Shown one piece after another: positions 13,494-53,359 of a stretch of DNA of 64,000 nt (positions are counted from its first letter, which is position 1; the number at the start of each line of letters is the position of its first letter). Position numbers and translations under genes: made by a program. The notes beneath the pieces are model-generated. The model worked only from the letters and a program-made list of their open reading frames with translations. It was not told where the DNA came from and did no database searches. The stretch is from Actinomycetota bacterium (GTDB lineage: Bacteria > Actinomycetota > Acidimicrobiia > Actinomarinales > Actinomarinaceae): the NCBI GenBank assembly GCA_014384285.1, contig JACNGE010000014.1, positions 141,316 through 205,315 of the forward strand, given 5' to 3'.

Positions 13494-13495
13494 GC

Positions 13496-20168: not shown

Positions 20169-20171
20169 ACA

Positions 20172-20786: not shown

Positions 20787-20789
20787 CAA

Positions 20790-21314: not shown

Positions 21315-21619
21315 TTGAAGTTTCAACAGATTGGTATTTGACATTAGCTGCTGTATTGTTCTCAATTGGATTTATTGGTATGATGATTCGCAAAAACGCA
21401 CTAATCATGTTTATGTGTATTGAGCTTATGCTTAATTCTGTAAATTTAACGTTTATCACAGCATCAAAACATTTTGGAACAATAGAAGGTCAAATTTCTG
21501 TGTTCTTCGTTCTAGTTGTTGCTGCTGCCGAAGTAGTTGTCGGCCTTGCAATCATAGTCTCAATATTCAAAAAACAATCCTCAGCATCCGTAGATTTACT
21601 TAGAACATCGAGAGGCTAA
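21311..21619 (+). CDS. nuoK: NADH-quinone oxidoreductase subunit K (operon 1)
   Basis: 102-aa, 3-TM protein with the [11 protein letters not shown] and [11 protein letters not shown] motifs. Confidence 0.93.
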
Positions 21620-21622
21620 GTA

Positions 21623-35579: not shown

Positions 35580-36383
35580 ATGGAAGCAAAAATACAAAAA
35601 CTTAAAAAATTTAATTTAAGAATGGGATTAGTTCACCTAATTCAAGGGGCGGGTCTGTTTTATCTAGGAACCGTAGTTAATACTGGCTTCACAGTTCCAT
35701 TAACAGTTACACAACTTGTTGGAGTTGGCACTCCAGAAGATCCTTCCAGTTTTGCTTTAGTGCCCGAATTACAAGTATGGCGAGAAGTATCCAATTTCGG
35801 TCCTGCTGTAGCTACATTCCTATTAGCTTCAGCGTTTGCCCATTTTCTTATATCAGGACCTTTCTACAACAAGTACAAGGAAGACTTAATGAAAGGTATT
35901 AATAAAGTTCGTTGGATCGAGTATTCAATAAGTGCATCCGTAATGATTGTGCTCATTGCTTTATTAGTTGGAATATATGACGTTTGGGCGCTTGCAGGAA
36001 TATTCGTAATGAATGCAGCTATGTGCTGGTTTGGATGGATGATGGAAGTTCACAACCAATATACTGATAAGGTTGACTGGACATCTTATATTATGGGTTG
36101 TTTGGCTGGAATTGCACCCTGGATATTTATTTTTATTAACTTAATTGGGGATGGGGTCGCTACTGATGCAAACCCTCAAGGAGTACCTCAATTTGTCGTT
36201 TGGATATTTGTCAGCATCTTCTTATTTTTTAATACTTTTTCTATCAATATGATTCTGCAATACAAGGGTGTGGGAAAGTGGAAAGACTATTTATATGGAG
36301 AAAGAGCTTATATATGGTTGAGTTTATTAGCTAAAACATGTCTCGCTTGGCAGGTATTTGCAGGAACTTATCAGCCAAACTAA
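35580..36383 (+). CDS. Heliorhodopsin (7-TM retinal-binding protein with inverted topology)
   Basis: Full-length similarity by eye to heliorhodopsin 48C12 as I remember it. Matching blocks are FN...G.VHLIQ, AFAHF, RWIEYSISASVMIVLIA, FGW, CLAGIAPW, LFFFNTF...LQYKGVGKW.DYLYGERAYI.LSLLAKTCLAWQVFAGT. The putative Schiff-base residue is Lys252 and the counterion is Glu114. The N-terminus is K/R-rich. Confidence 0.9.
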   Translation: MEAKIQKLKKFNLRMGLVHLIQGAGLFYLGTVVNTGFTVPLTVTQLVGVGTPEDPSSFALVPELQVWREVSNFGPAVATFLLASAFAHFLISGPFYNKYKEDLMKGINKVRWIEYSISASVMIVLIALLVGIYDVWALAGIFVMNAAMCWFGWMMEVHNQYTDKVDWTSYIMGCLAGIAPWIFIFINLIGDGVATDANPQGVPQFVVWIFVSIFLFFNTFSINMILQYKGVGKWKDYLYGERAYIWLSLLAKTCLAWQVFAGTYQPN

Positions 36384-37282: not shown

Positions 37283-38377
37283 CTAAAAATTGGTTAGCTC
37301 TATTACCGGTACTTCCATTTCTTCTGAAGTCACCCCTCCGTGATAGCCAACTAATTCAGCTTTCAAATGTTTAGGAAAAACAATATAGCCATCCGCCACT
37401 AAAAAGCAGTAATCAGGATAGAGTCTTTTGCTTAAGTTTGACTCAGGATTCCCAAGTAATTGTTTGACTTCATCATTAGTGAGAAAATTTCCAGGTACAT
37501 TTTTAAAGAGCTGTCTTACTTTAGAAGATTCCCCATTTATGTAGACGCTTCTTTGATCTCCAAAGATTTCAATATCGTCTGAGTAATCTAGGTAGATTCG
37601 ATTATCTTCCGGGATATTTGTAAGTCCATGATCAGCAGTTATTAAAGTATAGGTTTTTCTAGATTGGGAATTGTTTAATTTTTTTATAAAGTTTTCAAAG
37701 ATGCCTATTTCTGTATGCCACTCTTCGCTACCAACACCAAATACATGAGCTGAAATATCAATATTAGGATAATAAATAAAATTGAAACGATTATCTAGAA
37801 CAGACGAATCGCTAATAATTTCATTTAATTCGTCAGTATCTTTATAACCTATTTGATGAGAGTCTTTATAAATATATTCAGACAAAGCACTATTTATTAA
37901 ATCCTTTGGTTGCAGGTTATTAGATGTAATACCTCTCGCCTTTAATGTTGTCCAAATGGTTTTATTATCTTTTATATCTTCATCTTTTAGTAAATCTTTA
38001 TTTTCGTAATTCCAGTTCAATGCATTAATCAGTCCATATTGAACCTTGTCAAAAAGATAATAACCAAGAATAGATGTATCACATGGTTTAGCAACATAGT
38101 TAATTGTGCTTAAAGCGACATTTGTAGAACTTGGGAATGTAGAGTTTACAGAAAATGAATTAAAACTTTTTAAATAATCTGATCTAGAAATTTTTAGATT
38201 TTCATTTCCTAGGCCATCAGCTAAAACAAAATTGATTGTTTCAGCATTCAAAATTTTAGAGTGAAGATTGACTTCACGTTCCTCTTGAAATTCATCTGTG
38301 TTTAGTACTACGTTGAAGATTTTTTTTGATAGATCGAGTAAGTTACTTTTATCAATAATTGTTTCTAAATTCCTCAT
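37283..38377 (-). CDS. Alkaline-phosphatase-superfamily protein (type I phosphodiesterase/nucleotide pyrophosphatase-like)
   Basis: Contains FVLADGLG, TFPSSTN, ITADHGLT and GYHGGVTSEEMEVPV, the metal and nucleophile blocks of the NPP/AlkP fold. No signal peptide is visible. Confidence 0.7.
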   Translation of the reverse strand: MRNLETIIDKSNLLDLSKKIFNVVLNTDEFQEEREVNLHSKILNAETINFVLADGLGNENLKISRSDYLKSFNSFSVNSTFPSSTNVALSTINYVAKPCDTSILGYYLFDKVQYGLINALNWNYENKDLLKDEDIKDNKTIWTTLKARGITSNNLQPKDLINSALSEYIYKDSHQIGYKDTDELNEIISDSSVLDNRFNFIYYPNIDISAHVFGVGSEEWHTEIGIFENFIKKLNNSQSRKTYTLITADHGLTNIPEDNRIYLDYSDDIEIFGDQRSVYINGESSKVRQLFKNVPGNFLTNDEVKQLLGNPESNLSKRLYPDYCFLVADGYIVFPKHLKAELVGYHGGVTSEEMEVPVIELTNF

Positions 38378-38453
38378 AAAAAAAGTTTACAAACAATTAC
38401 GCTCAACTTTCAAATAAAACTAAAATTTCATACAGGTTGGTTAAAATCAAATT

Positions 38454-38819
38454 ATGAATTCATATTTTCAAGAGTATGCAACAGTAGCTGTGCTGCTAGC
38501 GGTAGGCATAATTTTTATGCTTGCCTTAACTACAATTGCATCAATCTTAAGGCCAAACAATCCATCAAAAGAAAAACTTACAACCTATGAATCAGGTGTT
38601 GACCCAGTGGGAACAGGATGGAGTCAAACATATGTTAGATACTATATATTTGGCCTACTGTTCGTTATTTTTGATGTTGAGGCAGTGTTTATATTTCCGT
38701 GGGCAATTAATCTTGAGAAGTTGGGTTATTTTGGATTAGTAGAAATGCTAGTTTTTATTTTTATTTTGCTAATTGGCTTAATCTACGCAATTAGAAAGGA
38801 TGTTTTAAAGTGGGAGTAG
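38454..38819 (+). CDS. nuoA: NADH-quinone oxidoreductase subunit A (operon 2)
   Basis: 3-TM protein with YESGV and FDVE motifs. First gene of the second nuo array. Confidence 0.92.
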
Positions 38820-39307
38820 TTGATAAATTTGGATTACCAAAACCTATATCTTCAGTGTTGAATTGGGCTAGGTCTTACTCTCTGTGGTATTTTCAATTCG
38901 GACTTGCGTGTTGTGCTATTGAAGTTATGGCTGTAAGTGGACCAAGGCACGACTTCATGAGACTAGGGATAATCCCACTACCTGCCTCACCAAGACAAGC
39001 CGATTTAATGGTAGTTGCTGGCACGGTAACTGATAAAATGGCACCCGCAGTGAAGAGATTATATGATCAAATGCCTGAGCCAAAATATGTTATTTCTATG
39101 GGATCATGTTCAAACAGTGGAGGTCCGTATTGGGATTCTTACTCCGTAACAAAAGGCGTTGACCAATTAATCCCAGTTGATGTTTATGTTCCAGGATGTC
39201 CACCAAGACCTGAAGCTCTGCAAGAGGGAATTATTCTCCTTCAGGAAAAAATAAGAGGAGAAGACATGAAAGAGAAGTGGAAGGCAGATCAAAATGAACC
39301 TGTCTAA
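38810..39307 (+). CDS. nuoB: NADH-quinone oxidoreductase subunit B (operon 2)
   Basis: CCAIEVM ... GSCSNSGG ... VPGCPPRPE (N2 cluster ligands). Confidence 0.95.
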
Positions 39308-39848
39308 CAATGTAGAATTTGTAGAATCACTCACAGCAGCTTTTCCCAGTCTAGAAAATAGTTTTGATACTTTGAAAATAACTGTGAAGTCCTCAGATTG
39401 GATTGACACTGTTGATAAATTAAAGAATGAATTTGAATTAACATACTTTTCGTGGCTGAGCGCCATTGACTGGGACAATGAAGTTGCCATAGGAGATCCT
39501 CCTAAGGAACCAGTTACACCACATTTTGAAATATTATGCTGTTTATCAGATTCTTTTGCAGGAAATTTAGTCATAGTCTCTACCCAAATTGATAAAGAAA
39601 CTCCACAAATCCCTTCCTTAGTTGGGGTTTTTGCAGGTTCTAATTGGCATGAAAGAGAAGCTTATGAGATGTTTGGAATTGAATTTATCAACCATCCTAA
39701 TTTAACAAAAATGTACCTTCCAGATGACTATGAAGGCAATCCCATGCTTAAATCATTTGAGTTGATTAGCAGAGAAGTAAAGCCATGGCCTGGTGAAGTT
39801 GATGTAGAAGGTATGCCAGATGATGGAAAAGAAGAAGGAGAGAGTTAA
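39294..39848 (+). CDS. nuoC: NADH-quinone oxidoreductase subunit C (operon 2)
   Basis: Contains [16 protein letters not shown] and the LPDDYEGNP block. Confidence 0.92.
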
Positions 39849-41045
39849 GTGGATGAGAATTTAAACTCGGGCAGTATTCCCTATGTCTCCGAAGCTTCTG
39901 TATCTGTTGAGATAGAAACTGAAGATATGACACTCAACATAGGACCTCAACATCCTTCAACACATGGAGTGCTAAGACTTGTTGCAAAAGTTGATGGAGA
40001 AAAAATTTCAAGTGTTGAACCAGTGCTTGGATACATGCATAGAGGTTATGAGAAATTAGCTGAGGTTAGAACTTATCCCCAAATAACAACACTCGTCAAC
40101 AGAATTGATTGGGTATCTGGTTTTGCAAATGAGATTCCTTTTATTGCTGCAACTGAAAAACTTATGGAGATTGAAGCGCCAGAACGAGCAAAGCATATTC
40201 GACTAATTCTCACTGAAATGGCGAGAATTGCTTCACACTTTGTTTTTAATGGTGCATATGCCCTTGAAATAGGAGCATTAACTCCAATTTTTTTAGCAAT
40301 GGAAGACAGAGAAAGAATTCTTGATTTAATAGAGTCAGTTACAGGAGGAAGATTCCACCCTAACTTCAATAGAATAGGCGGGATAAAACCTGCAGCTGGT
40401 TCAGGTCCTACAACAAAAAAGAATATCCAAGATTTACCTGCTGGGTTTTACCAAGACACCCGTGATGCTATGGAAAAAGTTTTAGAAGCTGTTGAAAGAA
40501 TGGAAAACCTTGTTGGTGGTAATGAAGTGTTTAAAATCAGGACTAAAGGTGTGGGTATTATTTCAAAAGAGCTTGCAGAAGAGTATGGAGTTTCTGGCCC
40601 GATTTTAAGAGCATCAGGGGTTAAATTTGATCTAAGATCACAAACTGATTTCTTGCCATATGATAAATTTGATTACGACATTCCAATTGGGGAAAACGGA
40701 GATTGTTATGATCGATGGTATGTTCGATTAATGGAAATGAAAGAGTCTGCAAAAATTATACTCCAAGCTATCGACTCAATGCCAAGTGGACCCCTCCAAA
40801 CTAAGGTTCCAAAAGTAATAAAAGTCCCAAAGGGTCAATCTTATGTTCGAACTGAGAATCCAAAAGGGGAAATGGGTTATTATGTTATATCCGAGGGAGG
40901 GCTTGGACCATATAGGCTTAAAGTTAGAACCCCTTCTTTTAGCAATATTTCAATTCTTCCTGTTTTGCTTGAAGGGCAGTTGTTACCTGACCTAATAGCA
41001 ATTATGGGCAGTTTAGATTTTGTCTTAGGAGATGTTGATAGATGA
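39849..41045 (+). CDS. nuoD: NADH-quinone oxidoreductase subunit D (operon 2)
   Basis: NIGPQHPSTHGVLRL, GYMHRGYEKL and the C-terminal LDFVLGDVDR. GTG start. Confidence 0.95.
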   Translation: MDENLNSGSIPYVSEASVSVEIETEDMTLNIGPQHPSTHGVLRLVAKVDGEKISSVEPVLGYMHRGYEKLAEVRTYPQITTLVNRIDWVSGFANEIPFIAATEKLMEIEAPERAKHIRLILTEMARIASHFVFNGAYALEIGALTPIFLAMEDRERILDLIESVTGGRFHPNFNRIGGIKPAAGSGPTTKKNIQDLPAGFYQDTRDAMEKVLEAVERMENLVGGNEVFKIRTKGVGIISKELAEEYGVSGPILRASGVKFDLRSQTDFLPYDKFDYDIPIGENGDCYDRWYVRLMEMKESAKIILQAIDSMPSGPLQTKVPKVIKVPKGQSYVRTENPKGEMGYYVISEGGLGPYRLKVRTPSFSNISILPVLLEGQLLPDLIAIMGSLDFVLGDVDR

Positions 41046-42022
41046 TTGATGGATCACAGGTACTTGTTACAGCAGGCATAATTCTTGCTTTTGCATTAAA
41101 TGGCGCAGTAATATTCACAATTCTTGATGTCAAAGGAGCATCATGGATGCAAAGACGACCGGGACCTCTTCATGTCGGTTTAAGAGGATTTATATTTCCA
41201 TTGGCTGAGATTATCAAGTTTTTTCAAAAAGAAGATATAACTCCTACAAATGTGGACTCAGCAGTCTTCAAATGGGCACCAGCTTATGTACTTGCTTCCG
41301 TGTTCGGATTATTTGTTGTAGTTCCAATTAGCCCAACTTTAGTTGGTAGTGATTTAGACCTTGGAGTCTTCTATCTTCTAGCAATCAGCTCTTTGTCAAC
41401 TCTTGGAGTACTTACGGCAGGATGGTCATCTGCAAACAAATATTCATTAATGGGTGGAATTCGTGCAGCAGGACAACTTATTGCTTATGAGCTTCCTCTG
41501 ATCCTTGCAGTAGTTGGAGTAGTTATCCAAGCTGAAACAATGTCTCTTGTTGGAATAGTGGAAAAGCAAATTGAATTTGGACTTCCATTTGTTCTTTCTG
41601 GTCAAGGTTTGGCATTTTTAATATTTATGGTTGCTGCAACGGCAGAAATGATGAGAGTACCATTTGATATGCCAATTGGCGAGTCCGAACTTGTTAGCGG
41701 TTTTTTAACTGAATATTCAGGAGTAAGGTTCTTAATATTTTATATAGCGGAATATATGAATATGTTCGTTTTATGTGCTGTAGCTTCAACCCTATTCCTA
41801 GGTGGATATCATGTTCCGTTGCTACCTACTGAATGGGTAAATTTTTATGGCCCTGTTGTACTACTGACTAAGACTGTTTTATTAGGCTTTATTTTAGTTT
41901 TAGTTAGATGGTCATTTCCAAGATTTAGAGAAGACCAGCTTCAAAACTTGGCATGGAAAGTATTAATCCCCCTTTCCCTTTTAAATATCTTGATAACATC
42001 AATAATGAAAGTAGTTTTCTAA
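41042..42022 (+). CDS. nuoH: NADH-quinone oxidoreductase subunit H (operon 2)
   Basis: MRVPFDMPIGESELVSGFLTEYSG and PRFREDQL. It follows nuoD directly with a 4-nt overlap, so there is no room for nuoEFG. Confidence 0.95.
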   Translation: MIDGSQVLVTAGIILAFALNGAVIFTILDVKGASWMQRRPGPLHVGLRGFIFPLAEIIKFFQKEDITPTNVDSAVFKWAPAYVLASVFGLFVVVPISPTLVGSDLDLGVFYLLAISSLSTLGVLTAGWSSANKYSLMGGIRAAGQLIAYELPLILAVVGVVIQAETMSLVGIVEKQIEFGLPFVLSGQGLAFLIFMVAATAEMMRVPFDMPIGESELVSGFLTEYSGVRFLIFYIAEYMNMFVLCAVASTLFLGGYHVPLLPTEWVNFYGPVVLLTKTVLLGFILVLVRWSFPRFREDQLQNLAWKVLIPLSLLNILITSIMKVVF

Positions 42023-42508
42023 ATGAGAAACTTTAGACCTAAGCTTCCCGGTTTTTTAACAGGAATGAAAATTCTATTATTTAATATGTTCAAGACTTTA
42101 TCGCCGTTAAGCCCAAATCCTAATGTGAACTACCCGTTCGAAAAAGAAATAGTTGCACCAAGAGCAAGGGGAGTTATCGCACTTGACCAAGAAGCATGTA
42201 CAAGTTGTATGCTTTGCGCTAGACAGTGCCCAGATTGGTGTATATATATAGAGGGCCATAAAGAATTACAACCACCCGCAAAACCTGGCGGAAGACAACG
42301 AAGTAGAGCTGTTTTAGACAGGTTTGATATTGATTACGCTCTTTGCATGTACTGTGGCATCTGTGTTGAGGTGTGTCCTTTTGACGCTCTTTTTTGGACA
42401 CCTGAATATGAATATTCCGAATACAATATGGGGGATATGCTTCATGATAAAAACAGACTTGATCAATGGCTTGAAACAGTACCTGAAATTGAAGGTTTAG
42501 AAAGTTAA
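42023..42508 (+). CDS. nuoI: NADH-quinone oxidoreductase subunit I (operon 2)
   Basis: Two 4Fe-4S motifs: CTSCMLCARQCP and CMYCGICVEVCP. Confidence 0.94.
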   Translation: MRNFRPKLPGFLTGMKILLFNMFKTLSPLSPNPNVNYPFEKEIVAPRARGVIALDQEACTSCMLCARQCPDWCIYIEGHKELQPPAKPGGRQRSRAVLDRFDIDYALCMYCGICVEVCPFDALFWTPEYEYSEYNMGDMLHDKNRLDQWLETVPEIEGLES

Positions 42509-42510
42509 TT

Positions 42511-43029
42511 ATGGAAGCCCTAGATATTATTAGCTATTTTTTACTTTTGGGACTCTTATTAGCTGCAGTTAAAGTTGTAACAACCTCAAATGTTATTCAC
42601 GCTGCAATTTCTTTAGTATTTACACTAGCTTTGACCGCAGGAACTTTTTTATTGCTATCAGCCGAGTTTGTCGCACTTGTAATAGTCCTTGTTTATATTG
42701 GAGCGGTAATTGTACTCTTCTTATTTGGAATAATGATTACAAGAGCTCCACTAGGACAAAATGCAGAATTAGATAACGAAAAAAATAAAGGGTTAGCTCT
42801 TGGTGTTTCTCTTTCCATTTTTGGAATTTTTTCATACGTGATGTTAAATACTTTTGACTCACAAATTAACACAACCAGTGGAACATCAACTGAGTTACTT
42901 GGAGAGATACTACTCAGTAGATTTGTATTTCCATTCGAAGTTGTATCTTTTGTATTACTAGCAGCTTTGATTGGTGGAATTACACTAGCACGACAAGATA
43001 ACGCCCTCATGGATGAGAATCAAATATGA
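42511..43029 (+). CDS. nuoJ: NADH-quinone oxidoreductase subunit J (operon 2)
   Basis: Membrane subunit with the LVIVLVYIGAVIVLFLFGIMI block, in the expected operon position. Confidence 0.9.
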   Translation: MEALDIISYFLLLGLLLAAVKVVTTSNVIHAAISLVFTLALTAGTFLLLSAEFVALVIVLVYIGAVIVLFLFGIMITRAPLGQNAELDNEKNKGLALGVSLSIFGIFSYVMLNTFDSQINTTSGTSTELLGEILLSRFVFPFEVVSFVLLAALIGGITLARQDNALMDENQI

Positions 43030-43331
43030 GTGTTCAACCATTCTTAATTGCTGCAGCTGGATTATTCTCAATCGGAATTTATGGAATTTTAGTCAGAAGG
43101 AATGTTGTTATGGTTCTTTTGTCAATTGAGTTAATTCTTAATGCAGTGAATATAAATTTTGTAGTTTTTGATGCGATGCTTAGAGATGCCATGCTTCAAG
43201 GGCAAATTTTTACTATTTTCATTATTACAATAGCTGCTGCTGAAGTTGGTATAGGTTTAGCGATTGTTTTGATGTTATTTAGAAATAGAAAAACTGCAAA
43301 CATAAATGAATTTGATTTGATGAAATGGTAA
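43026..43331 (+). CDS. nuoK: NADH-quinone oxidoreductase subunit K (operon 2)
   Basis: 101-aa, 3-TM protein with the SIELILNAVNI and AAAEVGIGLAI motifs. Confidence 0.93.
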   Translation: MSVQPFLIAAAGLFSIGIYGILVRRNVVMVLLSIELILNAVNINFVVFDAMLRDAMLQGQIFTIFIITIAAAEVGIGLAIVLMLFRNRKTANINEFDLMKW

Positions 43332-45343
43332 ATACTAATTTAATTTCTTTACTCGCTGAGGGAAAACCAACATTTACTGATGGCGGTATTGCTGCAGAAT
43401 ACACATGGTTAATTGTTGTTTTGCCATTTATAGCTGCACTTATAATTACTTTCTTTGGAAAATACCTGCCACTCAAAGGTGCTGAAATTGCACTCGCCAC
43501 AATTGCTTTTATATTTGCTTTTAGTTCATATCTTCTCTATCTCAATGTGATAGAGGGTGTGGCATCAGAATTTTATATTAATGTCGGAAGCATAGGCTCA
43601 TTCGATCTTGAATTTGGATGGGTAGTAGATGGCTTATCTATAATGATGTATTTTGTTGTTGGAACTGTGGCTACTCTTGTTTTCATTTATGCAACTAACT
43701 ATATGAAAGGAGAAGTTCGTTATACATTTTTCTTCACTTCCTTGACCCTTTTTGCTGGAAGTATGTTGGTTCTAGTGTCATCCCCAACATTATTACAATT
43801 ACTGATTGGATGGGAGCTTGTTGGTGTCTGTTCATATTTACTAATTGGTCACTATTGGGAAAATAAAGAAAATTCTTCAGCAGCCATGAAAGCATTTATA
43901 ACAAACAAAATTGCTGATGTTGGTTTAATGATTGGAATTATTGTCCTAGCACTATCTACAGGAACTATGAGAATTAGCGAGATTCTTTATCAGTCAACAC
44001 ATGATTATCAATCTCTAAAATCTGTTGCTTATCTCGCTGGAGTTTTATTGTTTATAGGAGCTATGGGCAAAAGTGCTCAATTCCCACTTCATGTATGGTT
44101 ACCAGATGCAATGGCTGGTCCTACACCAGTATCTGCGCTAATGCATGCTGCAACTATGGTTACTGCTGGAGTTTATTTATTAGCAAGAATGTTTCCTTTT
44201 TACCAAGGTATGGCCAGTCAAGCACTAGACGTAGTCTTACTCTTTGGTGTGGTTACTCTTTTTGCTGCAGGGTTGATAGCTATAGTTCAAGATGATTTAA
44301 AGAAAGTTTTAGCATATTCAACTGTAAGTCAGCTTGGTTATATGGTTGCTGCCATCGGTTCAGGTGCATATACTGCTGCACTATTCCATCTTTGGACCCA
44401 TGCATTTTTTAAAGCATTATTATTTTTGGGTGCTGGTTCTGTGATTCACGCTGTACACACTAACAGCATGAGAGAAATGGGTGGACTCAGAAAGGAAATG
44501 CCAAGGACTTATATAACTTTTATCGTTGGAACAATAGCACTTGCTGGACTACCTCCACTCGCCGGATTTTTCTCAAAGGATGAGATACTTGCTTCTCTAA
44601 ATCATGGTGGCTTTAGTACTTATTTTGCAATTGCGGTAGCTGGTGCATTTATTACAGCATTTTATATGACTCGAGCAGTTGTTCTAACATTCTTTGGTGA
44701 CTATAGAGGTAGCGGACACCCACATGAATCTGACACAATGATGACAACACCTCTTCTTGTACTAGCTGGATTTGCCGTAGCAGCCGGCTGGGTAAACATT
44801 CCAGGTGTATACACAGGATTTACTGACTGGGTAACCACAAGAAAGAATCCAATAATTGAATATCATCCAGAGTCTTTTGACTACTTTGCACTTAGTAGCG
44901 GTCTAATTGCAGGTTTAGTTGGAATAGGACTAGCGTATTACGTTTACCAAATTCTTGGAAAACCGGAAGATGGAGACCAGAAGATTAAGATTGATTCTGT
45001 GTGGAAGTTACTTGAAAATAAATATTATTTGGACGATTTTTATTTTAAATTCATTATAAATCCAACAAAATCCACACTTGCAAATATTGTTGATAAGTTC
45101 AATACAAATATTTTAGACCGAACGGTAAATATGTTTGGAATAGCTGCTTCATATCTAGGTAACCTTGTTTATGAAAAATTTGATCAAGGAGGAATAGACA
45201 GGGCTTTGAATGCTTCTTCATCATCTACAGATGCCCTAGGTGCTAGAGTAAAACTCTTGCAAACTGGAAAAGCTCAACAGTATATTATGTATTTTTTAAG
45301 CGGTGTGATAGTAATTAGCTTATTAATTTTGTTAGTGTTATAG
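43325..45343 (+). CDS. nuoL: NADH-quinone oxidoreductase subunit L (operon 2)
   Basis: Contains WELVGVCSYLLIGHYW, GKSAQFPLHVWLPDAMAGPTP and HAFFKALLFLGAG. Confidence 0.95.
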   Translation: MVNTNLISLLAEGKPTFTDGGIAAEYTWLIVVLPFIAALIITFFGKYLPLKGAEIALATIAFIFAFSSYLLYLNVIEGVASEFYINVGSIGSFDLEFGWVVDGLSIMMYFVVGTVATLVFIYATNYMKGEVRYTFFFTSLTLFAGSMLVLVSSPTLLQLLIGWELVGVCSYLLIGHYWENKENSSAAMKAFITNKIADVGLMIGIIVLALSTGTMRISEILYQSTHDYQSLKSVAYLAGVLLFIGAMGKSAQFPLHVWLPDAMAGPTPVSALMHAATMVTAGVYLLARMFPFYQGMASQALDVVLLFGVVTLFAAGLIAIVQDDLKKVLAYSTVSQLGYMVAAIGSGAYTAALFHLWTHAFFKALLFLGAGSVIHAVHTNSMREMGGLRKEMPRTYITFIVGTIALAGLPPLAGFFSKDEILASLNHGGFSTYFAIAVAGAFITAFYMTRAVVLTFFGDYRGSGHPHESDTMMTTPLLVLAGFAVAAGWVNIPGVYTGFTDWVTTRKNPIIEYHPESFDYFALSSGLIAGLVGIGLAYYVYQILGKPEDGDQKIKIDSVWKLLENKYYLDDFYFKFIINPTKSTLANIVDKFNTNILDRTVNMFGIAASYLGNLVYEKFDQGGIDRALNASSSSTDALGARVKLLQTGKAQQYIMYFLSGVIVISLLILLVL

Positions 45344-45351
45344 GAGGTAAA

Positions 45352-46941
45352 GTGGAAATAGTAACTAATAATTTTGAGTTTTTGGAAAACGGTTTGGGTT
45401 TAAGCCTTGTCGTATTTTTCCCACTAGTGAGTGCATTTATAGTTGCAATTTTGCCGAAAAAACAAGAACTGTTAATCAAACTAACAGCATTGGGTTCTTC
45501 ACTAATTACTTTCATTCTTAGTGTTATTGTCGCAATCCAATTTGATTATTCTAAAGCTGAACAATTTCAATTAGGGAGCAAACTTTCCTGGATCGAGGCT
45601 ATAAATTCGAATTATGAAATTGGAATTGATGGGATATCATTACCCTTACTCCTCCTTTCGACTTTTATTACAGTATTAGCAATAATTTATTCATTTGAAC
45701 ATCTTCCAGAACCTAAGAGTCCTAAAGGAATGATGGCTCTGATATTAATTTTAGAGACAGGAATGAATGGTACATTCGTTGCATTAGACCTAATACTCTT
45801 CTTTGTATTTTTTGAGCTAGTTCTATTACCTATGTATTTTATGATTGGTATATGGGGAGATAAAACAATGAGGTCTGTCGCAGGTCTTAAGAATGAAGTA
45901 GAGACACGTTTGTATGCGAGTATTAAGTTCTTTGTTTTCACTTTATTTGGATCTGCCTTCATGTTGCTTGGATTTTTAGGATTATATTTTCGAGGAGCAA
46001 AAACATTCAGTATTCCAGAATTAATTGAATTAGGTACAAGTGGAGCATTCACTGGAACCTTTGCAACGCTGGTTTTTGCAGTACTATTCTTAGGTTTTGC
46101 TGTGAAGGTGCCAATGTGGCCACTCCACACTTGGCTTCCAGATGCTCATACAGCAGCCCCTACAGTTGGTTCGGTTTTACTTGCTGCAATATTATTGAAA
46201 CTAGGTTCCTACGGTTTTGTGAGAATTGCTCTTCCAATTCTTCCTGAACAAGCAAAAGCCTGGGCACCTGCAATTGCAATCTTATCTGCAATTGGAATAA
46301 TTTATGGGTCTTTGGCCTGTCTTGCTCAAACAGACCTAAAGCGATTAATTGCTTTTTCATCAGTAGGTCATATGGGGTTCGTTATGCTTGGAATCTCTTC
46401 GTTAACTTCAATAGGAATAAATGCTGCAATGATTGGAATGGTTGCCCACGGTGTAATTACTGGATTACTATTCTTCCTATCTGGGTCGATGGCGCATACA
46501 TATCACACTAGAGATATGGGAAGACTTGGTGGAAATATGAAACTTCTACCAAAAACAGGAGCCTTATTAGGATTTACAGCAATGGCATCCCTTGGTTTAC
46601 CAGGACTTGCTGGTTTTTGGGGAGAATTTATGGCATTACTAGGTGCATATAATCCACTTCCTGGATTGAACATTGCAATTTTTAGAACATCAATGGTTGC
46701 TGGGGCAATAGGTACAGTTTTAACAGCTGGCTATCTTCTCTGGATGCTACAAAGGGTAAACCTAGGTGAACCAAATGAAGAGTGGAAAGATAAAGAGCTC
46801 CATGACGCAGATGCCTATGAGCTTGCTGCTTGGATACCGTTGGTGATTTTAACAATACTTATAGGTGTATTTCCTAAGTTAATTTTTGGATCTACAAATG
46901 ATGCTGTAATCAGTTTGGTTACCAAAGCATTTGGAGGCTAA
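45352..46941 (+). CDS. nuoM: NADH-quinone oxidoreductase subunit M (operon 2)
   Basis: VKVPMWPLHTWLPDAHTAAPTVGS. GTG start preceded by a GGAGG RBS. Confidence 0.95.
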   Translation: MEIVTNNFEFLENGLGLSLVVFFPLVSAFIVAILPKKQELLIKLTALGSSLITFILSVIVAIQFDYSKAEQFQLGSKLSWIEAINSNYEIGIDGISLPLLLLSTFITVLAIIYSFEHLPEPKSPKGMMALILILETGMNGTFVALDLILFFVFFELVLLPMYFMIGIWGDKTMRSVAGLKNEVETRLYASIKFFVFTLFGSAFMLLGFLGLYFRGAKTFSIPELIELGTSGAFTGTFATLVFAVLFLGFAVKVPMWPLHTWLPDAHTAAPTVGSVLLAAILLKLGSYGFVRIALPILPEQAKAWAPAIAILSAIGIIYGSLACLAQTDLKRLIAFSSVGHMGFVMLGISSLTSIGINAAMIGMVAHGVITGLLFFLSGSMAHTYHTRDMGRLGGNMKLLPKTGALLGFTAMASLGLPGLAGFWGEFMALLGAYNPLPGLNIAIFRTSMVAGAIGTVLTAGYLLWMLQRVNLGEPNEEWKDKELHDADAYELAAWIPLVILTILIGVFPKLIFGSTNDAVISLVTKAFGG

Positions 46942-48424
46942 TATTTCAATAAATTACTTTGCAATTTCTAGTGAACTAATTGTAGTTTTTACAATCATTG
47001 CCACAATATTTTTTGATCTTCTTTTACCTCGAAAATCAAAATTTTATGTTGCATTAGTTGCATTGCTAGGCTCTCTTGTGTCATTTATCCCACTTATTTT
47101 CCAGTGGGTTAATTATGAGAATGCCTTAGTTCTTTTTGAAGGAAGCTATATAGTAGACAAATTTTCATTAATCCTAAAAGGACTATTCATTCTTGTTACA
47201 TATTTAACATTCCTGCTTTCAATAAATTTCATTGAAAGTGATAGGTATTATCAAGGGGAGTACTACTACTTACTTTTAAGCTCACTCCTTGGTGCACTTG
47301 TAGTTGCCTCATCTAGAGATATGTTGACTTTGTTCATTGGTATTGAGCTTGCTTCTGCTCCAATGTTTTTACTTTCAGGCTGGAAAAAGGGTGACCAAAA
47401 ATCAAATGAAGGGGCAATTAAATTCTTCTTACTAGGAGTGCTTTCAGCATCACTCATACTTTACGGCTTTTCTCTACTTTATGGTTTGACTGGAGAATTA
47501 ATTTTTTCTGAAATATCAAAAATATTATTGGTAAAAAATCTTTCTACATCTCCAGCAGCTTTATTAAGTGCTATGTTGATTTTAGCTGGAATTGGTTTCA
47601 AAATTTCTGTGGTACCCTTTCACTCTTGGGCACCTGACACGTATGAAGGATCGCCATTACCTGTGACTGCATATCTATCAGTAAGCTCTAAAGCAACAGG
47701 TTTTGTTGCTCTAATGATTATTCTTACAAAGATTTATCCAGAGTCTGGCTCAAGTTGGGGTATAGTTCTGGTAATTATTTCTGGATTGACAATGTTTATA
47801 GGGAACCTTTCTGCACTTCAGCAATCTAACCCAGTAAGACTTTTAGCTTACTCTTCAATAGCTCAGGCTGGGTTTATTTTAGCTCCATTAGCAATCTCAG
47901 GAATATCAGGAGATTATGAAGATGGCATATATGCTAGTGTGACTTATTTAATTATTTATGCGTTTATGAACTTGGGAGCATTCCTAGTAGTAAATGTACT
48001 AATTAATACAAGTGGCAGTAATGATATATATGAATGGGGAGGTCTATCAAAACACCAACCTTTAACTGCTATTTTTGCAACAGTATTTTTCTTTTCACTT
48101 GCTGGAATACCCCCATTAGGAGGATGGTTTGCAAAATTTGTAGTATTCAGAAGCCTACTAAGTTCTGGTGAAATTTTTGGAATAACCTTGGCTGTCATCG
48201 GTGCAATAAATGCCGTTATTGGCCTAGTCTTTTATGCTAGGATTTCGAAGATAATTTGGATGGATGCCCCTTCCGAAAATATTACTGTAACTACTAAAAA
48301 TACACTTTTGAGTCCCTTAAAAGTTGTCGGATTTATAAGCCTTGCGATTACATTTATGGCTGGCATCTTTCCAAACTTATTTTCTTACCTTGGTAACGCT
48401 GCTTCATTATTTTTAAATAGTTAA
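46931..48424 (+). CDS. nuoN: NADH-quinone oxidoreductase subunit N (operon 2)
   Basis: KISVVPFHSWAPDTYEGSPLP. TTG start overlapping the nuoM stop. Confidence 0.93.
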   Translation: MEANISINYFAISSELIVVFTIIATIFFDLLLPRKSKFYVALVALLGSLVSFIPLIFQWVNYENALVLFEGSYIVDKFSLILKGLFILVTYLTFLLSINFIESDRYYQGEYYYLLLSSLLGALVVASSRDMLTLFIGIELASAPMFLLSGWKKGDQKSNEGAIKFFLLGVLSASLILYGFSLLYGLTGELIFSEISKILLVKNLSTSPAALLSAMLILAGIGFKISVVPFHSWAPDTYEGSPLPVTAYLSVSSKATGFVALMIILTKIYPESGSSWGIVLVIISGLTMFIGNLSALQQSNPVRLLAYSSIAQAGFILAPLAISGISGDYEDGIYASVTYLIIYAFMNLGAFLVVNVLINTSGSNDIYEWGGLSKHQPLTAIFATVFFFSLAGIPPLGGWFAKFVVFRSLLSSGEIFGITLAVIGAINAVIGLVFYARISKIIWMDAPSENITVTTKNTLLSPLKVVGFISLAITFMAGIFPNLFSYLGNAASLFLNS

Positions 48425-48429
48425 TCAGG

Positions 48430-49455
48430 TTGACCAACAATAATTTTATAAGCTATCTTCAAAACAAGTATCAGAGAGATTTCTTTTACTTTGATGAATA
48501 CATGGACGAATGTCTTTACTCCGAATTTGGCTTTTTTAACACAACAAAGGTTCGGTCAAATAAAGATGGTGACTTTTTAACCTCACCTGAAGTTTCGGAA
48601 TACTTTGGTTTTTTTATTTCAAATTTTATTAATGAAAACAGCATAAAAAAAAATATACTAGAAATAGGTGCAGGAACTGGCTCCCTTGCGTCACAGGTTG
48701 AAAAGTTTTCTAACAAGAAGCCTATTGTCATAGAGAAATCCAAAACTGCTTTCCAGTTTTTAAAAAATAACGAGTTTAATGTTTATAAATCTATAGAGTC
48801 TGTGCCAAACCAAGAAATTGATTTAATTTACATGAATGAGGTGCTCGACAATATTCCATGTGCAGTTGCTTTAAATGTAAATAATGAATGGTTTGAAAAA
48901 ATTATTAGACTAGAAGAGGATTCATTAACTTACGATCTTTTACCAATAAGGGAAATAAATTTAGCATGGATTACGAATAACAATATAAATCCAATTGAGG
49001 GTATAGAAATTGAAATTCAAAGAAACTCTACTGAATATCTCAAGAACCTTATTTCAAAATTCAAGCCAAAATATTTTATTATTTTTGATTATGGGTATGA
49101 ATTTTATGAAAGAGAAAATAAACCGTATAAATCTTTAATAAGGACCTATAAAGACCACCACCTCTCTGGAGAGACAATTCTTCAGCCTACATCTACGGAT
49201 ATTACCTACGATGTAAATTTTTCAAGTGTTGAAAGTTTTTTAAAAATAGAAGATTACACAGTAAAGCTAACCTCTCAAAAAGAATTTATTTATCAGAATG
49301 GTTTTGAGGAATTGTATAAAGAAATCCAAGCTGATTTTCAGAAAGCTGATGGAATGCATAAATTAACTCTGAAAACACATTTAGTTGGCCTTGAGGCAAT
49401 CAATAATAATAGAGGGTTAGGCGGTTTCAAGGTTGCAGTTGCAAAAAAATTATAA
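48430..49455 (+). CDS. MidA/NDUFAF7-family (DUF185) SAM-dependent methyltransferase
   Basis: Family blocks: F.EYMDECLY....GFF......GDFLTSPEVSEYFG, then a SAM-binding ILEIGAGTGSL motif. It starts 5 nt after the nuoN-2 stop codon. Confidence 0.8.
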   Translation: MTNNNFISYLQNKYQRDFFYFDEYMDECLYSEFGFFNTTKVRSNKDGDFLTSPEVSEYFGFFISNFINENSIKKNILEIGAGTGSLASQVEKFSNKKPIVIEKSKTAFQFLKNNEFNVYKSIESVPNQEIDLIYMNEVLDNIPCAVALNVNNEWFEKIIRLEEDSLTYDLLPIREINLAWITNNNINPIEGIEIEIQRNSTEYLKNLISKFKPKYFIIFDYGYEFYERENKPYKSLIRTYKDHHLSGETILQPTSTDITYDVNFSSVESFLKIEDYTVKLTSQKEFIYQNGFEELYKEIQADFQKADGMHKLTLKTHLVGLEAINNNRGLGGFKVAVAKKL

Positions 49456-49478
49456 ATAGCATCATTTATAATCAAAGT

Positions 49479-50318
49479 ATGAATCAAATAAAAACAACAA
49501 TACTATTAACGCTGATGAGCTTAGTTGTTCTTTTTACAGCTCAAACATTAGGATATAATTTAATATTTTCAATATTTCTTGCTGGTATTTTCAACTTTTT
49601 TATTTATTTTTATTCTGGCAAAATTGCATTATCTTCAACAAAGGCAGAAAAAATTGCTGAAGGAGAGTACGAAGAAGTCACTGGCATTGTTAAGTATTTA
49701 ACTCAGAAAGAAAAAATGCCTATGCCGGATCTTTATATAATTAAGAATGACCAGCCCAATGCATTTGCTACTGGTAGAAATCCTAAAAATGCAAGTGTTG
49801 CTGTTACAACAGGGATCTTAAAGGTCTTAAATAGAGATGAACTTGAGGGTGTATTAGCTCATGAAATTTCTCACATCAAAAATAGGGACATTTTAGTATC
49901 CAGCATGGCGGCTATGCTAGCATCTACAATTTCATTCATGTCTAGAAGTGTTTTTTGGGGTGGTGGCAACAGAAATAGAAACACACATCCGTTATTTTTT
50001 ATTGTTGCATTAGTAGCTGCTCCATTAGCTTCAGTTATAATTCGTATGGCCATATCAAGAACCCGCGAATTTGGGGCTGATAAAACTGGTTCAAGTATTT
50101 CTGGAAACCCTTTAGCTCTTGCATCAGCACTAGAGAAGATTGAAAAATATTCAAAACTTCCAATGCATGTGAACCCCGCCGTAAGCCAGCTTTTCATTTC
50201 TGACCCTTTAAAAGCTTTAACAGGAGGAGGAATGAGAAAATTATTTTCAACCCATCCCCCAACAGCAGAGAGGATAAGACGACTAAAGGAGGACGCTAGT
50301 GGTATTCGGTATAGGTAA
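49479..50318 (+). CDS. htpX: Zinc metalloprotease HtpX (peptidase M48)
   Basis: HEISHIKNRD zinc motif, EFGADK, PNAFATG and a C-terminal HPPTAERI block, with TM helices. Confidence 0.92.
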   Translation: MNQIKTTILLTLMSLVVLFTAQTLGYNLIFSIFLAGIFNFFIYFYSGKIALSSTKAEKIAEGEYEEVTGIVKYLTQKEKMPMPDLYIIKNDQPNAFATGRNPKNASVAVTTGILKVLNRDELEGVLAHEISHIKNRDILVSSMAAMLASTISFMSRSVFWGGGNRNRNTHPLFFIVALVAAPLASVIIRMAISRTREFGADKTGSSISGNPLALASALEKIEKYSKLPMHVNPAVSQLFISDPLKALTGGGMRKLFSTHPPTAERIRRLKEDASGIRYR

Positions 50319-50652
50319 AGAGATACAAGAAGTTCTTCCTGAAAATTTAGAAAATCTTTTAAGTGAAGGTTATAAATTGATAGATGTAAGAGAACAAGAT
50401 GAGTGGGATGCAGGACATCATGAAGAAGCTAAGCATGTACCTATGGGAACAATTCCAGAAAAAATTAATGATTTTAATAGTGATGAAAAATATATCATAA
50501 TCTGTCGATCTGGAGGACGTTCAGGAAGAGTATGTTCTTTTATGGAAGAAGAAGGACTTAGTCCTTTGAATTTAAAAGGAGGAATGAATAAGTTATCTCC
50601 AGCTTCTAAAAAAATAGTAAATTCTAATGGCGGTATTGGAACAGTCATCTAA
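50299..50652 (+). CDS. Rhodanese-domain sulfurtransferase (single domain)
   Basis: LIDVREQDEWDAGH and an active-site loop CRSGGRS. The GTG start overlaps the end of htpX. Confidence 0.85.
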   Translation: MVFGIGKEIQEVLPENLENLLSEGYKLIDVREQDEWDAGHHEEAKHVPMGTIPEKINDFNSDEKYIIICRSGGRSGRVCSFMEEEGLSPLNLKGGMNKLSPASKKIVNSNGGIGTVI

Positions 50653-50661
50653 AATCAATTT

Positions 50662-51618
50662 GTGATAATTTGTATTGGCAACGCAATGGTTGACTCTCTT
50701 CAAAAAATAGATGAAGAGGTAATTAATCAGCTTCAACTCAATAAAGCCAGGATGACTCTAGTGGATAAAGATAGATCTAATGTTCTCCTGGAAGTAATGT
50801 CTAATCCAATACAGGCGGCTGGTGGTTCAGCAGCCAACACAGCTTATTGGGCAGCGCAACTTGGGGGTGAAGTAGGTTTTATTGGAAAAATCTCAAATGA
50901 TGATCTTGGAAAGCAATTTAAAGCAAGTGTTAAAAAATCAGGTCTTAAAGACTTCACTGTATTTGAAACTGAGGAAAATCAAACTGGACACTGCGCAATT
51001 TTTATTACTCCAGACGGTGAGAGAACCATGAACACCTATTTAGGAGCTGGTGCATTTCTTACAATCAAAGATTTAAATGAAGATGCAATCAAATCTGCTG
51101 AAATTCTTTATATGGAAGGTTATCTTTGGGATAAACCAACAAGCAAGGAAGCTTTTTTGTACGCTGCAAAATTGAACAAATTATCGGGTGGCAAGAACGC
51201 AATTACTTTATCAGATGTATTTTGTGTTGAAATGCACAGGGAGAGTTTTATTGAATTCATTAAAGATAGTATTGATTTTGTATTTTGTAATGAAGAAGAG
51301 ATTACGGCACTCACCATGAAGAATTCAACTGATGAAGCAATCGATTTTTTCCTAGATCAGTTTCCTGATGTTGAAGAACTTGTTTGTACATTAGGGCCAA
51401 AAGGAGCATTAGTAATTAGTAATGGAAAAAAAGTTCACTACCAGGCAACTGAAGCGGAAGTTGTAGACAAAACTGGTGCAGGAGATTACTTTGCTGCAGG
51501 TTATCTATACGGCATACAAAAGCAGCTTACAAAAGATGAATCCGCTGATATTGCTAACAGAAGTGCAGCATACGTGATTAGTGAAGTTGGAGTAAGGCCA
51601 AATAAGAAATTTTCTTAA
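50662..51618 (+). CDS. PfkB-family carbohydrate/nucleoside kinase (adenosine-kinase-like)
   Basis: GGSAANTA N-terminal motif and the DKTGAGDYFAAGYLYG ATP-site motif. Confidence 0.85.
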   Translation: MIICIGNAMVDSLQKIDEEVINQLQLNKARMTLVDKDRSNVLLEVMSNPIQAAGGSAANTAYWAAQLGGEVGFIGKISNDDLGKQFKASVKKSGLKDFTVFETEENQTGHCAIFITPDGERTMNTYLGAGAFLTIKDLNEDAIKSAEILYMEGYLWDKPTSKEAFLYAAKLNKLSGGKNAITLSDVFCVEMHRESFIEFIKDSIDFVFCNEEEITALTMKNSTDEAIDFFLDQFPDVEELVCTLGPKGALVISNGKKVHYQATEAEVVDKTGAGDYFAAGYLYGIQKQLTKDESADIANRSAAYVISEVGVRPNKKFS

Positions 51619-52379
51619 CTTCTCCACCCGATAATCTGGTAAATAACTCTTTCATCTCCATCAAAGTTTGGAAGATAAATATTATCTGTCAATAACTTTA
51701 TTGGATCGTATTTCTTATTCTTTGAAAAAAATAATATGTTATTTTCTGTATCTAATGCAACAATATTTTTTCCATCTGGAGACCATCTTAAAGACTCAAA
51801 GTAATAATTTGTGGGAGCTTGCGTAGTAAAAACTTCGATGATCTCGGAATCTTTCTGGTAAAAAATACTAGCTGTTCTTGCACTTGTTTCTCTCATCTCC
51901 CAAGGAGTGAGTAGTTTTTCTCCTAATACATTAATTTCATACATGTTTCGATTACTTGAAATGTTTTTTGTGTCTGTTTCCTTAACTCCGCTATTTTTGA
52001 TGTCAATGATTAAAGCCATTTCTGAGTTTGTTGAGTTGTCCCAGTACCTTAAGATTATATTTCCATCTTCATCTATCTCTGGATCAGTCAAATAAAAATC
52101 GTAGGAGTATTGATAAAGGTCACTTTTGCAGATTACTTTTTCTTCTTTTATTGGCGCAATAGAAATGTCTATCTTTAAAATGCATTCGTCAACAATATCT
52201 GGTGCGGGTGGAATTATATTTCTACTTTCTATTCCTACTGAGAAAAATATTGAACCCTGCAATGATTGATTTATTTCAGTATCGTAAGTAGGTAAAGGTA
52301 TTATTCCAAATAAAGCAACCAAACCTACAGAAATTAGCAAGACTATCAAAGACTGTAAAAGTGTGGCTCTTTTATTCAA
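51615..52379 (-). CDS. Hypothetical membrane-anchored protein with a TolB-like beta-propeller signature
   Basis: One N-terminal TM helix (LLQSLIVLLISVGLVALFGI) and a WSPDGKNIVAL repeat block. I prefer the TTG start at 52379, which overlaps the upstream stop as TTGA. The ORF track extends to an ATG at 52472 inside the upstream gene. Confidence 0.6.
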   Translation of the reverse strand: MNKRATLLQSLIVLLISVGLVALFGIIPLPTYDTEINQSLQGSIFFSVGIESRNIIPPAPDIVDECILKIDISIAPIKEEKVICKSDLYQYSYDFYLTDPEIDEDGNIILRYWDNSTNSEMALIIDIKNSGVKETDTKNISSNRNMYEINVLGEKLLTPWEMRETSARTASIFYQKDSEIIEVFTTQAPTNYYFESLRWSPDGKNIVALDTENNILFFSKNKKYDPIKLLTDNIYLPNFDGDERVIYQIIGWRS

Positions 52380-53359
52380 GACTCTTTCCTTAGATTCTCT
52401 CTTAGTGAATTTAAGTAAAGCCCTACTGTAATTAATACGCCACCAACAATAAATAAAACAAGTGGAGGCCAAATATTATTAGGTAACAACTCAGAAATAA
52501 GTCTTGGTAAATTTATTATCAACCCAAGACCGCCTACATAAAAAATAACTTGCTCTGAGAGCTTTATACTTATCCATATGTAAAACAATGAACCAACAAT
52601 TAAAATAATTATTTTTATGACTTCATAGCTTGAAAGCAAATTCTCTGTAATCGTAATAACACCAATAGCGATATTTACTGAAGACAAGAAGTAACCAAGC
52701 CAACTTGGCTCTAGTAAATTTGAATAAGTATTTAACCCCCAAACCAACCCAACAGTAGCAATAAACAGACCAATTCCCCAAGGTTCAACATTTCTAAGAA
52801 ATAGATTTCCAATACTACCTAGAAAAAATATAAGTGAGTAAAACAAAGTTATGTGCTGAAAAATTTCAAGGGTCAACTTATACAAATATCCTGAATAAAT
52901 TAAAACTAATGATGAAGTTATCAAAATTGTTACATCTTCGGAGACATTGAACATAAGTGTGTTTTCTAAAATATTGATTAAAAAAATTGCCGAAGCGCTA
53001 AACGAGACTGTTGAAACAAGATACAAGAATGATGCAACTCTTTCATTAGATTTAAAGATAAACAGTTTTTGTTTATCAATTTGTTGACTGTAGCCACCAG
53101 CAAAAAATAAAAACCATGTTGTTGCCAATAACAACAAAAGTTGTGCCCAGTAGGATAAATTTTGCCAAATTAGGGGGAGTGTTCCTATTAAACCTGAAAG
53201 AAGAAAAAAACCTCCAATTATTGTCAAGGCTCTTGCTGTTTTTGATTTTTGTGAAGGACTGTTTGTTTCGTCGAAATTTTTAATTTCTTCATACGACTTT
53301 TGATCTAGTATTTCATTTTCAACTAGGTTTTCCAAAAAATTCTTAATTTTTTTATCCAC
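52376..53359 (-). CDS. Hypothetical polytopic membrane protein (DUF2157-like architecture)
   Basis: 327 aa with a soluble ~45-aa N-terminus followed by ~9 hydrophobic helices. The family call is tentative. Confidence 0.6.
   Translation of the reverse strand: MDKKIKNFLENLVENEILDQKSYEEIKNFDETNSPSQKSKTARALTIIGGFFLLSGLIGTLPLIWQNLSYWAQLLLLLATTWFLFFAGGYSQQIDKQKLFIFKSNERVASFLYLVSTVSFSASAIFLINILENTLMFNVSEDVTILITSSLVLIYSGYLYKLTLEIFQHITLFYSLIFFLGSIGNLFLRNVEPWGIGLFIATVGLVWGLNTYSNLLEPSWLGYFLSSVNIAIGVITITENLLSSYEVIKIIILIVGSLFYIWISIKLSEQVIFYVGGLGLIINLPRLISELLPNNIWPPLVLFIVGGVLITVGLYLNSLRENLRKES

Follow-up and report, generated by a model that had tools for sequence, protein, structure and literature searches.

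In humans, the methyltransferase NDUFAF7 dimethylates an arginine of the complex I subunit NDUFS2 (PMC3829151), and the same residue is symmetrically dimethylated in the bovine, human, Pichia and Paracoccus denitrificans enzymes (PMC3750175). This arginine of the HRGxE motif adjoins cluster N2 and is conserved in most complex I enzymes; Thermus thermophilus has a threonine at the site, and a neighboring arginine, Nqo6 Arg83, occupies the same space (PMC8042128). For mitochondria it is debated whether the dimethylation serves assembly, tuning of cluster N2 or both (PMC8042128), and the function of the bacterial members of the family, MidA, has so far been inferred in silico only (PMC12455994). 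The marine Actinomarinales were described to carry two nuo operons with a heliorhodopsin gene between them; their truncated complex was likened to Methanosarcina Fpo, with F420 as a possible electron donor, and this account does not mention a methyltransferase (PMC7771536). In this work, we analyzed a stretch of 64,000 nucleotides (in the following, the window) from an Actinomarinaceae genome of low GC content (0.32–0.37; assembly GCA_014384285.1, contig JACNGE010000014.1, positions 141,316 to 205,315 of the forward strand). It contains a complete 14-gene nuo operon (nuo-1, 12203–26468) and a second operon, nuo-2 (38454–48424, forward strand), in which open reading frames (ORFs) together with Pfam and NCBIfam models gave the 11 core genes nuoABCDHIJKLMN in order. 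A midA-like gene follows nuo-2, and we propose that its product probably is a dedicated maturation methyltransferase for Arg65 of NuoD-2, in analogy to NDUFAF7 acting on NDUFS2 Arg85.

The midA-like ORF (48430–49455, 341 amino acids) starts with TTG five nucleotides (TCAGG) past the nuoN-2 stop codon. A preliminary description, made from the DNA letters alone, had reported this ORF, quoted the motifs GDFLTSPEVSEYFG and ILEIGAGTGS from it and assigned it to DUF185/MidA; reading the sequence again, we found the ORF and both motifs in place, and a hidden Markov model (HMM) search confirmed the family. PF02636 (Methyltransf_28, formerly DUF185) matched residues 74–272 with an E-value of 4e-20 and 72.8 bits against a cut-off of 23.3. 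Sequence matches in the PDB were only 4f3n, a Burkholderia COG1565 protein (best, E 1.6e-9), 1zkd (DUF185) and 5ztz, the Dictyostelium MidA homologous to NDUFAF7, and the database cluster of the product is named 'SAM-dependent MidA family methyltransferase', SAM denoting S-adenosylmethionine. The predicted fold agrees with this assignment: an AlphaFold2 model built from an alignment of 24 diverse homologs reached a predicted local distance difference test score (pLDDT) of 94.1 and a predicted template modeling score (pTM) of 0.92, and the top six Foldseek matches in the PDB were all MidA/COG1565 proteins (5ztz, 5zu0, 4g67, 1zkd, 4f3n; E 1e-19 to 3e-22, template modeling (TM) score 0.73–0.83). 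The next family, cap N7-methyltransferases, followed only at E 4e-8 and a TM score of 0.42.

Conservation was measured over an alignment of 110 MidA family members from the loci fetched in this work. The window MidA retains 33 of the 38 positions that are conserved in at least 85% of these members, including all six family-invariant residues (G82, E137, D140, Y221, D257, Q283). The residues of the catalytic core are present (N136, E137, D140, D220, Y221, D257, T259, Q283), as are the GDFxTSPE motif (G47-D-F-L-T-S-P-E54) and SAM motif I, ExGxGxG (E78-I-G-A-G-T-G84), both of which at least 92% of the members share. Database sources call the nearest relatives of the window Candidatus Actinomarina, of the class Acidimicrobiia. 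A search for close homologs returned only Actinomarina sequences with at least 69% identity; diverse homologs were hence taken from a search of representative sequences. Most database gene calls begin the product at the ATG at 48502 (Met25, 317 amino acids) and thus miss the family's conserved N-terminal helix. We take the TTG at 48430 to be the more likely start, because residues 6–24 align with this helix and because, in tblastn, relatives with 45% identity already match from residues 6–9 onward.

The proposed target residue was mapped by a three-way alignment with human NDUFS2, for which we used a sequence 100% identical to chain 5xtd_Q in mature numbering. The NDUFS2 motif GLLHRGTEKL, as given in the preliminary description, proved right, its arginine being residue 85 of the mature chain. 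As claimed there, Arg65 of NuoD-2 (GYMHRGYEKL, codon AGA) shares the alignment column of this arginine, and NuoD-1 has a threonine in it (GYLHTGMEK). NuoD of Mycobacterium smegmatis and of T. thermophilus both read GYLHTG like NuoD-1. The NuoB subunits show the reverse pattern. NuoB-1 carries an arginine ('VAGRVS') at the position of Nqo6 Arg83, like NuoB of T. thermophilus and M. smegmatis, and NuoB-2 carries a threonine ('VAGTVT'). Since arginine and threonine are thus swapped between the D and B subunits, nuo-1 is of the Thermus/mycobacterial configuration (threonine in D, arginine in B) and nuo-2 of the mitochondrial/Paracoccus configuration (arginine in D, threonine in B). NuoD usually has an arginine at the NDUFS2-85 site, and the threonine of NuoD-1 is the lineage-typical state of Thermus and Mycobacterium (PMC8042128). 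The threonine in NuoD-1 is hence nothing special in itself, because this ordinary actinobacterial/Thermus state is offset by the NuoB-1 arginine. Within the window, NuoD-2 is the only subunit to offer the known substrate residue of the family. The same alignment showed that NuoD-2 lacks about 25 residues that NuoD-1 and human NDUFS2 have, and that 13 residues are inserted after its 'RIGGI'; among NCBIfam models, the 366-amino-acid PRK12322 type of NuoD fits it best.

No nuoE, nuoF or nuoG lies between nuoD-2 and nuoH-2, as the two genes overlap (nuoD-2 to 41045, nuoH-2 from 41042). The midA-like gene had been called fused to the end of this operon. However, nuoN-2 and midA are separate cistrons, so that midA is more aptly described as an appended cistron. 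In relatives, long stop-to-stop ORFs (L104, L108, L112, L113; loci are given as L numbers) and database proteins of 461–536 amino acids (P0132, P0134, P0147) had suggested NuoN–MidA protein fusions. We rejected this idea since the MidA domain does not share the frame of nuoN in these four loci; we take the long ORFs for artefacts caused by high GC. In the window, a consensus scan of positions 37800–52600 found no terminator-like sites between nuoN-2 and position 51618, and promoter-like sites were fewer than in shuffled sequence, an outcome that would fit co-transcription but carries little information. The 5-nucleotide gap was rejected as a sign of coupling, as the median intergenic distance in the streamlined genomes of the order is 2 bp (PMC7771536). 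Tight spacing is therefore uninformative in this genome, and we surveyed other genomes in both directions, starting from MidA and from nuoN-2.

With a MidA profile of the diverse homologs, 80 loci with 10-kb flanks were fetched from contigs of one genome per species; 27 belong to Acidimicrobiia or relatives and 53 are proteobacterial. In 8 of the 27 Acidimicrobiia loci nuoN-2 lies upstream of the MidA gene, directly so in Actinomarina (L001–3), Microthrix (L025), L023 and L024, and at a distance of 1.3 kb in L006 and L027. A metagenome scan anchored on nuoN-2-type genes gave another 80 loci, whose downstream ORFs were screened with the MidA family HMM. In 34 of them a MidA ORF follows nuoN-2 directly and on the same strand, three of these ORFs being independently confirmed by Pfam. 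The 34 loci span a GC content of 0.33–0.71, and in most of them the MidA match begins −16 to +30 nucleotides from the nuoN-2 stop, often with overlapping stop and start. Such spacing is operon-like, and here it occurs outside streamlined genomes. Of the close relatives (approximately L081–L134 and L147), about seven loci end too soon past nuoN to judge, a few have unrelated genes downstream of nuoN, and in seven others (L121–L124, L126, L131, L147) nuoN-2 is followed directly by a gene for an HtpX-like protease, without MidA. Across Acidimicrobiia, htpX is the usual, conserved gene downstream of midA, and in loci that lack midA it takes this place behind nuoN-2.

The presence of MidA after nuoN-2 tracked that of nuoD-2. 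For this comparison we counted only loci in which both the nuoD position and the DNA past nuoN were visible. MidA was present in 14 of 15 operons with nuoD-2 (the window, L001–3, L006, L027, L103, L105, L108, L111, L114, L118, L119 and L132), and their NuoD-2 always read GYMHRG[YF]EK. It was found in none of the five sister operons that lack nuoD (nuoABC-HIJKLMN; L121, L126, L129, L130, L147; Fisher's exact p = 4e-4 among related loci). In these, nuoC and nuoH are 100–260 nucleotides apart, and L121:2406–4807, checked ORF by ORF, holds a NuoC ORF with the Complex1_30kDa domain only. In three of the five, nuoN is directly followed by htpX; the others have unrelated genes there. We had also considered that the nuoD-less operons might carry an arginine-type NuoB to pair with NuoD-1, an idea given up as their NuoB has threonine.

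A neighbor-joining tree of 110 MidA sequences, which as a distance tree without support values is indicative only, placed an actinobacterial MidA clade apart from the alpha- and the beta/gammaproteobacterial clades. One actinobacterial branch (27 loci, including Microthrix) is linked to nuo throughout. In the other, the basal lineages are nuo-linked (Actinomarina, L023, L084, L006, L081, L024, L027, L086) and the unlinked MidA–htpX loci form a nested group. The simplest history would thus be that the order nuo-2–midA(–htpX) is ancestral and that the linkage was later lost in one subclade.

We hence assume that midA is transcribed together with the NuoEFG-less nuo-2 operon, as its last dedicated cistron. 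The most likely target of the encoded MidA-type protein arginine methyltransferase is Arg65 of the NuoD-2 HRGxE motif, and symmetric dimethylarginine is the probable product. Because Arg65 adjoins the Fe-S cluster N2 at the NuoD/NuoB interface, MidA might act as a maturation or assembly factor, and it would do so for the second complex I only. Judging from the residues at the site, the canonical complex I of the organism cannot be a target, since NuoD-1 has threonine there and the arginine is supplied from NuoB-1. The dedicated pair of methyltransferase and substrate put forward in the preliminary description is thus supported by the HMM assignment, the residue alignment and the co-occurrence survey; the enzymatic activity and its substrate, the type of modification and an effect on assembly or cluster N2 are what we infer from them.

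Several observations weigh against a dedicated role for NuoD-2. It was nearly right to call bacterial MidA essentially uncharacterized, as had been done for this gene, but the arginine is known to be symmetrically dimethylated in Paracoccus denitrificans Nqo4 and unmodified in E. coli complex I, which can hence function without the modification (PMC3750175). One operon, L127, has an HRG-type nuoD-2, yet no MidA within 3 kb downstream, and an M28-type peptidase gene follows nuoN. Distant 11-gene operons (L135, L148, L159) encode a NuoD with the arginine (GYLHRCFEK) and have no MidA nearby. The p value given above overstates independence, because the loci are related and the counts are not independent events. 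Furthermore, since NuoB of the nuoD-less operons is still of the threonine type, an arginine-bearing NuoD, and possibly MidA too, may be encoded elsewhere in these genomes. No nuo genes were found within 10 kb of midA in any of the 53 proteobacterial loci, and in about 19 of the 27 Acidimicrobiia loci, the nested subclade, nuo-2 is missing from the 10 kb around midA. The genes upstream of midA vary in these loci (luciferase-like oxidoreductase, glycogen genes, purine nucleoside phosphorylase), which usually retain htpX downstream of midA. Finally, DNA methylation by a Wolbachia MidA expressed in E. coli was reported preliminarily (PMC12455994). The unlinked loci and this report would also suit a different substrate, another protein or a nucleic acid, with the place after nuoN-2 being inherited synteny of a nuo-2–midA–htpX block. 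This block is syntenic in any case, as htpX follows nuoN-2 even without midA, and tight spacing is the norm in the streamlined genome (PMC7771536). Still, mere synteny is rather unlikely to account for an adjacency that persists at MidA identities of 23–31% and over a GC range of 33–71%, with stop/start overlap in many loci, that is basal in both actinobacterial MidA branches, and from which midA is missing exactly in the sister operons without nuoD. Moreover, this arginine of NuoD/NDUFS2 is the one substrate of the family that experiments have demonstrated (PMC3829151, PMC3750175), so that we give another substrate likewise a low chance. Either explanation can accommodate the unlinked subclade, the L127 exception and the proteobacterial genes without linkage.

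Two further explanations concern the partner and the chemistry of MidA. Together with the downstream HtpX it could form a general quality-control pair for membrane complexes, with NuoD-2 as no specific client. Indeed, midA–htpX is the most frequent adjacency, with the genes within a few hundred bases of each other in roughly 16 of the 27 Acidimicrobiia loci, and it persists where nuo-2 is not nearby. However, in the nuo-linked branch of 27 loci htpX usually is kilobases off or absent from the locus, and the seven loci with htpX directly after nuoN-2 but without midA indicate that htpX tracks nuo-2 rather than midA; a partnership of MidA with a protease was not found in the literature covered. 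We regard such a pair as very improbable. MidA might also be an assembly chaperone of NuoD-2 that does not need methyltransferase activity, or might make only monomethyl- or asymmetric dimethylarginine. The window protein is shorter than characterized members (341 versus about 390–430 amino acids), is only 17–20% identical to the solved structures and deviates at 5 of the 38 highly conserved positions, for example with Lys214 and Thr254 in place of glycines. In contrast, the SAM motif ExGxGxG and all invariant residues of the family are intact, and in Dictyostelium a methyltransferase-deficient mutant fails to rescue (reviewed in PMC9006661), which makes either variant improbable.

Starting from a dedicated methyltransferase for NuoD-2, we may speculate on the presence of two isoforms in one cell. 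Arginine dimethylation by the operon MidA could be a sorting mark that lets NuoD-2 pair only with NuoB-2. Hybrid pairs would be defective in this case, because NuoD-1 with NuoB-2 has no arginine near N2 and NuoD-2 with NuoB-1 has two. We consider such sorting doubtful; if true, complex I arginine methylation would be ancestral in an actinobacterial lineage and not solely proteobacterial in origin.

The MidA protein family, its eukaryotic function and both Actinomarinales nuo clusters are already known. In the literature covered we found no report of an actinobacterial MidA clade as terminal gene of an EFG-less operon, nor of a correlation of MidA with arginine-type NuoD; the work of Shahul Hameed et al. 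2018, which lies outside this literature, might mention such contexts. Both points hence appear to be new. They matter since the presumed enzyme and substrate of the family are encoded in one operon, and since the other complex I of the organism, by nature without the target residue, provides an internal control. The arrangement recurs widely in Acidimicrobiia and relatives and is absent from nuoD-less sister operons, and thus adds independent genomic evidence for a MidA–NuoD link outside proteobacteria and mitochondria. With midA, the EFG-less complex of marine Actinomarinales, itself little understood, gains a defining accessory gene.

The features of the window discussed here are compiled in Table 1. 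Genes for the HtpX-like protease, a rhodanese and a sugar-kinase-like protein follow midA, all on the same strand, in a run that ends at 51618; this order is kept in all Actinomarina loci (L001–L003, L119 and L132 listed). The heliorhodopsin gene (PF18761, E 3e-88) lies between nuo-1 and nuo-2 at 35580–36383.

Table 1. Positions of the nuo-2 operon, the midA-like gene and the compared nuo-1 genes in the window
Feature	Position	Strand	Remark
nuoB-1	12622–13086	+	Arg72 (12835–12837, 'VAGRVS'), equivalent of Thermus Nqo6 Arg83
nuoD-1	13496–14851	+	Thr (13811–13813, GYLHTGMEK) at the NDUFS2 Arg85 site
nuoA-2	38454–38819	+	first gene of the EFG-less operon
nuoB-2	38810–39307	+	Thr72 (39023–39025, 'VAGTVT') at the Thermus Nqo6 Arg83 position, alignment
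nuoC-2	39294–39848	+	ORF and Pfam
nuoD-2, proposed substrate	39849–41045	+	Pfam and NCBIfam NuoD; HRGxE motif GYMHRGYEK, alignment
AGA codon of NuoD-2 Arg65, proposed methylation site	40041–40043	+	homologous to NDUFS2 Arg85 (mature numbering)
nuoH-2	41042–42022	+	ORF; orthologs in related loci
nuoI-2	42023–42508	+	ORF; orthologs in related loci
nuoJ-2	42511–43029	+	ORF; orthologs in related loci
nuoK-2	43026–43331	+	ORF; orthologs in related loci
nuoL-2	43325–45343	+	ORF; orthologs in related loci
nuoM-2	45352–46941	+	ORF; orthologs in related loci
nuoN-2	46931–48424	+	stop TAA 48422–48424, 5 nucleotides ahead of the midA start
midA-like gene, MidA/NDUFAF7 family (PF02636)	48430–49455	+	341 amino acids, TTG start; alternative ATG 48502
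htpX-like gene, M48 membrane protease	49479–50318	+	starts 23 nucleotides past midA

Some further arrangements were seen in the surveyed loci. In the subclade in which midA is not linked to nuo-2, a gene for a luciferase-like monooxygenase of about 283 amino acids (PF00296, confirmed by Pfam for the copy in L007 only) is often found divergently upstream of midA (L005, L007, L010–L013, L022). A few kilobases from midA, the same subclade has NuoF-like and NuoG-like genes (L004:2824–7232, L008:630–4421, L022:4017–8448), which correspond to a soluble module of the NADH-dehydrogenase or formate-dehydrogenase type. In L135:1157–20046 and in L138, an 11-gene nuo operon (NuoD GYLHRCFEK, NuoB with threonine) is immediately followed by a 14-gene operon (NuoD GYLHSGFEK, NuoB with arginine). 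This lineage has the same inter-subunit arginine switch between its two isoforms, with no MidA gene nearby.

Among known systems, human NDUFAF7 and Dictyostelium MidA (5ztz, 5zu0) are the closest to the window protein. They share PF02636, the two-domain fold (TM score 0.81–0.82 over the whole model), the GDFxTSPE motif, SAM motif I and the invariant residues, and the homologous HRGxE arginine is also present in the NuoD-2 partner. In contrast to these enzymes, the window protein is about 60–90 residues shorter, at about 20% identity, and its gene belongs to the very operon that encodes the presumed substrate. Its partner complex has 11 subunits and no NuoEFG, whereas theirs is an NADH-oxidizing enzyme with 14 core subunits, and the host is an actinobacterium. 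The MidA family is reportedly of proteobacterial origin, going by the title of Shahul Hameed et al. 2018 as cited in PMC9006661. The COG1565/DUF185 structures without known function from Burkholderia thailandensis (4f3n/4g67) and Rhodopseudomonas palustris (1zkd) resemble the window MidA with TM scores of 0.73–0.83; these proteins are proteobacterial and longer, and show no linkage to a complex I operon in the sampled loci.

On the side of complex I, nuo-2 has the same 11-gene core as the EFG-less NDH-1-type complexes, namely cyanobacterial NDH-1, archaeal Fpo and the Bacillus-type nuoABCDHIJKLMN; an electron-input module for nuo-2 was not identified in this analysis. The enzymes of T. thermophilus and M. 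smegmatis, with Nqo4 Thr64 and Nqo6 Arg83 (PMC8042128), are arranged exactly as nuo-1 and, having no NuoD arginine to methylate, provide the contrast case to nuo-2. Complex I of Paracoccus denitrificans, in turn, combines an HRG-type NuoD with a threonine-type NuoB, as does nuo-2. There, it is the canonical 14-subunit enzyme that is modified, the responsible methyltransferase is only inferred, and the sampled alphaproteobacterial loci have no nuo genes close to midA, unlike the window. Nevertheless, symmetric dimethylarginine has been shown experimentally in Paracoccus Nqo4 (PMC3750175), which gives a bacterial precedent for the chemistry that we propose for NuoD-2.

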